Source: Escherichia coli (GTDB lineage Bacteria > Pseudomonadota > Gammaproteobacteria > Enterobacterales > Enterobacteriaceae). From it: DNA of 28,808 nt. The notes beneath the pieces were generated by a model. The model had not been told where the DNA came from. It worked only from the letters and a program-made list of their open reading frames with translations, and ran no database searches. Positions within the stretch are counted from its first letter, which is position 1, and each line of letters begins with the position of its first letter. This document shows positions 27,739-28,808 of the stretch, in pieces. The DNA lies in the NCBI RefSeq assembly GCF_003334315.1, contig NZ_QOWR01000061.1. One strand, written 5' to 3'. The translations under genes and the position numbers were made by a program.

Positions 27739-28395
27739 CTACAGATTAATGATGAGGTCTACGGCCTCAAATCGCCAATATTCAATATCTATCTGGACAA
27801 TATTGCCTTGCTGGTCGGCGCGATGCTTTTCAATTAAGATCGCTGGCATACCCGCAGAACCGCCAAGATACTTGCTGATATCGCCCGGCATTCTGACGGG
27901 TTTGAAAATCAATTTTTTTACTACCGTCTCTTTTTGGTAGCACTTTTCCCAGACTGCAGAAAATGAGTGGTTTTCAAGTTGTTCAATAAAACCCGGAGCA
28001 ACTTCAGGATTAATATATGTTTCGTGATAGAAAACTTTATGTCCTTCCAGCGCCCCCCAGCCGGTGATGCGATAGAGTTCAGTTGATGATGTCACTGCAA
28101 TCAGTGGCGCGAGCGTCTCGGGAATATCGCTGGTACGGCTTTTCTCGGTAAACCCCCAGGAAGGTTCCCGCCCTTGCTCAATTGCGGCCCGCTGAAAGCT
28201 CGCCGACAGCTCCGGACTGTAATTAAATCGCGGCTGGGTCACGAACCACCCCTTACGATCCTTACGGAAGATTTTGGATTCTGCCTCGAGGTTCAACAAC
28301 GCCTGGCGCAGCGTCATACGTTTAATGCCCAGCAGTTCTCCCAGCTCTCTTTCTGAAGGGAGTTTTCCACCCGGCGTGGTGATGCCATCTTTCAA
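27739..28395 (-). CDS. yihL: GntR/HutC-family regulator YihL, 5'-truncated by IS1 (possible pseudogene)
   Basis: ORF begins at TTG 28395. The frame stays open upstream to the IS1 junction (28436), encoding ...YQSTVENAKEKLDRWLKDGITTPGGKLPSERELGELLGIKRMTLRQAL..., a GntR HTH lacking its first residues and native ATG. C-terminal UTRA-like domain. Confidence 0.6.
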   Translation of the reverse strand: MKDGITTPGGKLPSERELGELLGIKRMTLRQALLNLEAESKIFRKDRKGWFVTQPRFNYSPELSASFQRAAIEQGREPSWGFTEKSRTSDIPETLAPLIAVTSSTELYRITGWGALEGHKVFYHETYINPEVAPGFIEQLENHSFSAVWEKCYQKETVVKKLIFKPVRMPGDISKYLGGSAGMPAILIEKHRADQQGNIVQIDIEYWRFEAVDLIINL

Positions 28396-28436
28396 CCACC
28401 GATCCAGTTTCTCTTTTGCATTTTCTACGGTGGATT

Positions 28437-28808
28437 GGTAATGACTCCAACTTATTGATAGTGTTTTATGTTCAGATAATGCCCGATGACTTTGTCATGC
28501 AGCTCCACCGATTTTGAGAACGACAGCGACTTCCGTCCCAGCCGTGCCAGGTGCTGCCTCAGATTCAGGTTATGCCGCTCAATTCGCTGCGTATATCGCT
28601 TGCTGATTACGTGCAGCTTTCCCTTCAGGCGGGATTCATACAGCGGCCAGCCATCCGTCATCCATATCACCACGTCAAAGGGTGACAGCAGGCTCATAAG
28701 ACGCCCCAGCGTCGCCATAGTGCGTTCACCGAATACGTGCGCAACAACCGTCTTCCGGAGCCTGTCATACGCGTAAAACAGCCAGCGCTGGCGCGATTTA
28801 GCCCCGAC
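28437..28808 (-). mobile_element. IS1-family insertion sequence, partial (right end), inverted relative to the copy at 1..372; window ends inside the element
   Basis: Begins with IS1 terminal sequence GGTAATGACTCCAACTT; ORF 28452..28718 encodes the same InsB C-terminus as ORF 91..357; last ~60 nt are the reverse complement of the first ~60 nt of the window. Confidence 0.9.
28452..28808 (-). CDS. insB: IS1 transposase InsB, C-terminal fragment (5' end outside window)
   Basis: Translation identical to the InsB fragment at the left end. Confidence 0.85.

Follow-up and report, generated by a model that had tools for sequence, protein, structure and literature searches.

The stretch of DNA analyzed here, referred to below as the window, comprises 28,808 nucleotides of the Escherichia coli contig NZ_QOWR01000061.1 (assembly GCF_003334315.1), and at its right end part of the insertion sequence IS1 abuts the 5′ portion of yihL, a gene for a GntR-type transcriptional regulator. 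Both the terminal repeat and the internal insB sequence of the element can be recognized on the visible 372 nt, which identify it as IS1 of the IS1A/IS1B type (Table 1). The right inverted repeat (IRR), GGTAATGACTCCAACTTATTGAT (beginning GGTAATGACTCC...), was recovered as an exact 23/23 match with 0 matches expected by chance. The whole 372-nt portion was 100% identical to annotated IS1A/IS1B transposase copies in thousands of E. coli records, and it showed a single mismatch when compared with the two IS1 copies of strain ET76 (NZ_CP101010). A complete IS1 measures 768 bp (PMC12428005). The stop codon of insB (TAA, 28454–28452) was read on the minus strand, and the IS1 genes thus run in the same direction as yihL.

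The gene adjoining the element can be assigned from its sequence as the yihL ortholog, a member of the HutC subfamily within the GntR family, given the 100% nucleotide identity to many strains and the order in which yihM, yihN, and ompL follow it (the typA side lies beyond the window). Intact alleles from strains BE2-5, ET76, and GS04 are annotated in RefSeq as genes of 711 nt encoding 236 aa with the N-terminus MAENQSTVENAKEKLDRWLKDG (MAENQSTVENAK...), and the 5′ end of the native gene reads AAGGATTAAACA-ATG GCG GAG AAT CAA TCC ACC GTA.... In the window, the bases from 28436 down to 27739 on the minus strand were 100% identical to nt 14–711 of these alleles. Frame translation, along with a scripted comparison with the native allele, placed the junction between IS1 and yihL at 28436/28437, where the native ATGGCGGAGAATC/AATCCACC... 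gives way to ...CATTACC/AATCCACC..., the window reading ...GTCATTACC/AATCCACCGTA... across the joint. Base 28437 is common to both partners, since on the coding strand it is both the last C of IS1 and nt 13 of native yihL, and codon 5 (CAA) is restored by this terminal C. The end of the interrupted gene had originally been predicted at 28450, which falls 14 nt inside IS1; the protein string quoted in that prediction was reproduced by our minus-strand translation.

Alignment with the intact alleles, which had been proposed as the way to count the lost codons, revealed that four of them, nt 1–12 (Met-Ala-Glu-Asn), are gone. The Shine–Dalgarno (SD) sequence and everything upstream are also missing on this side, and the remainder of yihL is intact, with YihL residues 5–236 encoded unchanged. 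The start codon and ribosome-binding site of yihL have been replaced by IS1 in the window, which consequently holds no intact translatable copy of the gene.

Table 1. Coordinates of the features discussed in the text (positions of the window; a dot marks a feature without strand).
Feature	Position	Strand	Basis
Second IS1 right end, inverted copy of 28437–28808; truncates frvR	1..372	+	Inverted repeat, 372 nt, 100% complementary
yihN, major facilitator superfamily (MFS) transporter, intact, last gene of the module	25384..26649	-	
yihM, intact gene of the sugar phosphate isomerase/epimerase family; its start lies 7 nt behind the yihL stop	26751..27731	-	
yihL′ remnant, coding sequence nt 14–711 (codon 5 positions 2–3 to codon 236 plus stop), GntR/HutC-type regulator gene	27739..28436	-	100% identity; reference WP_000829804.1, 236 aa
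Region encoding UTRA, the effector-binding domain (residues 91–230)	27760..28179	-	PF07702; YvoA/NagR and DasR homology
Coding DNA for the complete Pfam GntR winged helix-turn-helix (residues 8–70), physically intact	28240..28428	-	PF00392
TTG, native codon Leu19; first canonical start in the yihL frame; SD-like GGAUCGGUG, spacing only 1 nt	28393..28395	-	Leu/Ile in orthologs
Candidate weak hybrid promoter: -35 TTGGAG in IRR (28450–28445), 17-nt spacer, -10 TAGAAA in yihL codons 8–10 (28427–28422)	28422..28450	-	
Presumed IS1 target site of 9 bp (plus strand, CGGTGGATT)	28428..28436	.	Inferred from the known 9-bp IS1 duplication
IS1 IRR, GGTAATGACTCCAACTTATTGAT	28437..28459	+	Exact match
Right-hand 372 nt of IS1, comprising the IRR and the 3′ part of insB; truncated where the window ends	28437..28808	-	100% identity to IS1A/IS1B
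In-frame TGA closing the yihL frame upstream, inside IS1	28495..28497	-	Translation and codon listing

To relate this loss to the protein, the domains of the intact allele were located with Pfam, which detected GntR (PF00392) at residues 8–70 (E 1.7e-19) and UTRA (PF07702) at residues 91–230 (E 3.4e-21). An AlphaFold (AF2) model of YihL, built on 13 orthologs and reaching a mean predicted local distance difference test (pLDDT) score of 86.8, predicts helix α1 at residues 3–20, α2 at 33–40, α3 at 44–56, and the wing at 60–70. The original prediction that the native start and the N-terminus of the helix-turn-helix (HTH) are missing therefore stands for the start, the intact ATG lying 54 nt upstream of the TTG at 28395, but overstated the coding loss, as the DNA for the whole winged HTH and for UTRA is still there; it is only a hypothetical product initiated at that TTG that would be deprived of helix α1. 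The same architecture, an N-terminal winged HTH followed by a C-terminal UTRA domain, is found in YvoA/NagR of Bacillus subtilis (2wv0/4u0v) and DasR of Streptomyces coelicolor (4zs8), to which YihL aligned over residues 12–216, whereas YihL in this strain lacks the start of its gene. YihL itself has been described as an uncharacterized transcription factor (PMC9308461).

The position of the native start is supported by several conserved features. The native ATG is preceded by an AAGGA SD sequence at a spacing of 6–7 nt. Twelve orthologs of 232–239 aa, including those of Citrobacter (86% identity), [Enterobacter] lignolyticus, Pragia, Serratia, Edwardsiella, Limnobaculum, Shimwellia, Aeromonas, Morganella, and Acinetobacter, conserve both residues 6–19 and the start position; they begin 4–5 residues ahead of S-T-V-E, a conserved motif, and hardly vary at V8 and L15. 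The Pfam GntR match begins at residue 8, which corresponds to model position 2, and residue 19, where the TTG falls, was Leu or Ile within helix α1 across the orthologs in the alignment and the model. The SD spacing, the RefSeq annotation in three strains, the Pfam boundary, and the conservation of residues 6–19 and of the start position among orthologs thus mark the ATG as the true start. An intact homolog annotated from the TTG at 28395 would have meant, as the original prediction itself pointed out, that no coding sequence was lost; the intact alleles start at the ATG.

Upstream of the junction, the codon listing agreed with the earlier description, as the yihL frame stays open into IS1 for 20 sense codons before the TGA at 28497–28495 closes it; an open stretch of this length within IS1 is not remarkable by itself. 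The codon-by-codon listing also bore out the claim that neither ATG nor GTG occurs between this TGA and the TTG at 28395–28393, and no further TTG was found there either, the only near-cognate codons in the interval being ATA at 28455 and CTG at 28407.

Two other readings of the junction were noted along the way. An open reading frame (ORF) of 42 aa (28322–28450, minus strand) opens at a TTG that lies in the IS1 IRR, 2 nt beyond the end of insB, and overlaps the 5′ end of yihL′ out of frame; its TTG is the first start met by ribosomes leaving insB, and the frame is probably meaningless. A fusion of InsB to YihL was considered and rejected as negligible: the yihL frame is −1 relative to insB, and its translation would require a second −1 slip on the A-AAA-C run in the last 14 insB codons on top of the rare insA–insB frameshift.

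A survey of other genomes was used to place this junction within the species. The yihL/IS1 junction was absent from the 5,426 complete RefSeq genomes of E. coli, and its exact pattern gave 0 matches in species-representative genomes and 0 in metagenome contigs. Of 4,426 genomes carrying the empty site, 4,421 had it uninterrupted. As the 20 kb beside the junction are ~100% identical to BL12, GS04, BHD6, 2018-01-1CC, and other strains, all of them with intact yihL, the insertion appears to be recent. Around 1,000 of the 5,426 complete genomes gave no match to yihL or its promoter, and several frameshifted or truncated YihL clusters exist (P0020, P0044/45, and P0054), which together indicate that yihL is dispensable and often decays. 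As a laboratory allele, ΔyihL::kan has found use as a linked, neutral marker (PMC4759930).

The genomic context of intact alleles was also taken into account to evaluate how the genes behind yihL might be transcribed. Intact genomes carry, behind the typA stop, a terminator made up of a strong hairpin and a T-run, and a spacer of ~150 nt separates this terminator from yihL; genomic systematic evolution of ligands by exponential enrichment (SELEX) located binding of the RpoD holoenzyme in the typA–yihL spacer, the target being listed as ‘yihLM’ (PMC3946193). From these intact alleles, we infer that yihL has been separated from its native promoter in the window, as originally proposed. A consensus scan of the minus strand from IS1 to yihM (28436–27731) detected nothing resembling a promoter. 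An internal yihM promoter within yihL was likewise discarded, as the consensus scan finds none and the looser position weight matrix (PWM) matches in that region are unremarkable. Because yihM begins immediately behind the yihL stop and no promoter-like site lies between, the module depends on transcription entering through yihL.

Together, these observations lead us to favor, with a probability of about 0.8, a reading in which IS1 interrupts yihL 12–13 nt into its coding sequence, just behind codon 4 and with insA/insB co-oriented, as a recent, strain-specific event that left yihL null or near-null and yihMN expression low. IS1 is known to make a 9-bp target duplication, and a simple insertion should have left the 9-bp repeat AATCCACCG at both IS1 ends, including the side of the left inverted repeat (IRL) beyond the window. 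In this scenario, full-length YihL would not be made, and at most traces of YihL(19–236) would arise from the poorly placed TTG, a product that, without α1, should not fold into a DNA-binding domain. Since full-length YihL would be absent and the TTG product would lack α1 of the winged HTH, yihL is expected to be a null or near-null pseudogene here, and it is almost certainly a dead gene in this strain. Having no detectable promoter of their own, yihM and yihN would be reached only by transcripts that cross IS1 and then ~700 nt of untranslated yihL′, presumably originating either from the very weak, InsA-repressed promoter at IRL (PIRL) or from whatever lies past IRL. The polarity of IS1 on distal genes is Rho-dependent and acts on untranslated RNA. 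Such polarity, with Rho acting on the untranslated RNA, would be expected to leave yihMN expression low and uninducible rather than high, and polar silencing of yihMN appears more likely than constitutive expression. The classical polar IS1 insertions of the gal and lac operons known from textbooks resemble this case in that IS1 sits in the first gene of an operon, the product is abolished, and distal expression is expected to go down; they differ from it in that the target here is an uncharacterized regulator gene, entered only 12–13 nt into its coding sequence, and in that polarity here is predicted.

Several points weigh against this reading. The window ends before the IRL side of the element is reached, leaving the target duplication and any persistence of the native promoter outside the view. 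A candidate weak hybrid promoter, TTGGAG-17-TAGAAA, spans the junction, and fusion promoters formed by IS1 have been documented for blaTEM-1 in pBR322, for blaTEM-6, and for acrEF in Salmonella (PMC9330008). A truncated protein may be made from the TTG, given its SD-like complementarity, which amounts to −5.2 kcal/mol. A C>G scan for Rho-utilization-like stretches in yihL′ returned only two modest windows, and the polarity argument consequently rests on textbook IS1 behavior and not on the yihL′ sequence. The effects on yihM and yihN expression are what we infer from these elements, and the polarity step is the least secure part of the mechanism.

Instead of a simple insertion, the element might mark the border of a larger IS1-mediated rearrangement, a possibility raised by the left end of the window and one that we regard as real but doubtful. 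There, a second IRR at 350–372 was again an exact 23/23 match with 0 expected by chance, followed by a remnant of frvR covering approximately its last 161 codons (373–859), so that the window is flanked on both sides by partial IS1 copies with their IRRs pointing inward and both cut at the same IS1 position. The block of 28 kb enclosed by them contains frvR′-yiiG-fdhD-fdoGHI-fdhE-...-sulfoquinovose cluster-ompL-yihNM-yihL′. According to this explanation, the block from frvR′ to yihL′ would have been inverted, through intramolecular replicative transposition or recombination between the copies, or else an adjacent deletion would lie on the far side, and the yihL promoter would either be lost or lie 28 kb or more from the gene. 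Replicative inversion is expected to give the geometry X-IRL[IS1]IRR-segment-IRR[IS1]IRL-Y, yet two independent insertions yield the same arrangement one time in four. IS1 is reported to make intramolecular deletions and inversions (PMC9330008, with reference to Turlan and Chandler 1995), and IS1-associated deletions do occur at this locus. In LCP22S3_I2 (NZ_CM149864, ~2569–3300), IS1 lies in the typA–yihL spacer and yihL–yihQ is deleted, the element being joined next to yihR, and in ET76 (NZ_CP101010, 507–2334), two IS1 copies are found and most of yihM–yihQ is deleted; both deletions remove part of the sulfoquinovose catabolism cluster.

The uniqueness of the two joints is also compatible with a rearrangement, as the frvR/IS1 junction, like that of yihL, was absent from the 5,426 complete E. 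coli genomes and from the species-representative genomes and metagenome contigs. On the other hand, frvR has been hit by IS1 independently in four other strains, VTB97420v (NZ_CP178690), W2-5 (NZ_CP032989), HZ13, and KH_005, where the element has the same orientation and lies 44 or 173 bp from the window’s junction, and the left copy hence needs no link to the right one. The protein cluster P0018 (182 aa, 70 members), in which YihL residues 1–174 continue into the IRL read-out GDAANLLI-stop, reads at the sequence level as an independent IS1 insertion near yihL codon 174 in another lineage, that of an MTGNQ N-terminal variant. All these events in the yihL–yihQ/frvR neighborhood involve the same element and the same area as those of the window, whereas their positions are all different and none of them has either window junction. 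Furthermore, identical 372-nt ends resemble the contig ends produced by a collapsed repeat, which would select for windows bounded by insertion sequences. Both orientations of the 28-kb block contain the same sequence, and because either of them gives exactly the sequence observed, simple insertion and inversion look alike here.

The functional interpretation originally attached to the junction was deregulated expression of the module, with yihM and yihN dependent on read-through or an outward IS1 promoter. Spelled out, loss of a repressor, combined with an IS1 or hybrid promoter or with read-through, would make yihM and yihN constitutive, possibly with a YihL(19–236) that still binds its effector and dimerizes. 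We find this unlikely, although some features point in its direction. Transcription from the candidate hybrid promoter would begin near 28415, and the first start on the transcript would be the TTG at 28395; in addition, IS1 and yihL point the same way, and the fusion promoters of blaTEM-1, blaTEM-6, and acrEF offer a precedent (PMC9330008). As in those cases, a gene without a promoter of its own lies directly beside an IS1 end that reads outward, with a -35-like TTGGAG in the inverted repeat lying 17 nt from a -10-like sequence in the flank. In contrast to them, the -10 TAGAAA is poor, a history of selection is lacking, the frame downstream has no good start codon, and the promoter is a candidate predicted from the sequence. 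The candidate was obtained with a heuristic PWM scan, which also recovers the IRL promoter CTGCCA-16-TATGAT in full IS1; its score was 5.0, compared with 6.1–6.5 for the best candidates of the native spacer, its -10 is without the final T, a critical base, and the site does not appear among those of the stricter consensus scan. From what is generally known of IS1, the ~450 nt of insB and ~650 nt of yihL′ that would be poorly translated or untranslated favor Rho-dependent polarity. Transcription from the flank has been found to read into and through IS1 and to reach a reporter placed after insB, but the element’s own promoter (PIS1), which overlaps IRL, was described in the same work as ‘extremely weak’ and is repressed by InsA (PMC12428005). 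Moreover, constitutive expression through repressor loss presumes that YihL represses yihLMN.

A combination of these two ideas seems to us quite improbable: through a single replicative transposition or ongoing recombination, the 28-kb block would be invertible or behave like a composite transposon, yihL′MN would be read from the frv side or from a derepressed yihL promoter depending on orientation, and the weak hybrid promoter would give constitutive yihMN together with a YihL devoid of α1.

There is very little to suggest that a repeat-induced misjoin in the assembly placed an IS1 end beside yihL. Both window ends do break off at one and the same position of IS1, as contigs that end in repeats typically do, and the junction is unique; however, the break falls exactly at the last IRR base, as in true transposition, whereas a misjoin would be expected inside the repeat.

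That yihL naturally starts from the TTG at 28395, with IS1 merely upstream and nothing functional lost, is hardly credible and was ruled out by the conservation, the Pfam boundaries, and the structure model described above, even though a gene caller picked this start on an IS1-free metagenome contig (218 aa), since that contig carries an additional G in codon 3 and RefSeq annotates the ATG. The contig in question (ENA ERZ28757078, contig_4506) reads GCGGGAG instead of GCGGAG at 2947–2960, which puts the ATG out of frame, and it may carry either a genuine frameshift or a sequencing error in the homopolymer. An exact-protein look-up of the 218-aa TTG product found only this frameshifted allele.

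Returning to the favored reading of a simple IS1 insertion within yihL, the event is an ordinary strain-specific insertion mutation that involves no new kind of biology, as IS1 and yihL, like polar insertional inactivation itself, are well known, and it matters little beyond this strain. It bears on annotation in that automated gene calling is likely to yield a 218-aa ‘GntR family regulator’ from the TTG and so to mask the pseudogene, as already seen on the frameshifted metagenome allele. The strain would also constitute a natural yihL-null, probably with yihMN down, and the near-identical intact strains BL12, GS04, and 2018-01-1CC allow the regulator–isomerase–transporter module to be compared. 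Additionally, the repeated IS1 hits in the frvR–yihL neighborhood bear on the stability of the adjacent sulfoquinovose catabolism cluster.

Two minor observations concern the surroundings of the interrupted gene. The typA–yihL spacer contains a 6-bp tandem repeat (GTAAGC GTAAGA...) in most E. coli genomes, which is lacking in BE2-5-type alleles (306 versus 300 bp matched); the short form was represented by only 21 records at ≥99% identity (BE2-5 ~2385–2395 versus contig_4506 2898–2915). Within the 28-kb block, the adjacent ORFs 3144–3731 and 3780–6194, located on the same strand, have the appearance of an fdoG gene divided at its in-frame selenocysteine TGA (3729–3731), a normal feature of this gene that could be mistaken for a pseudogene.

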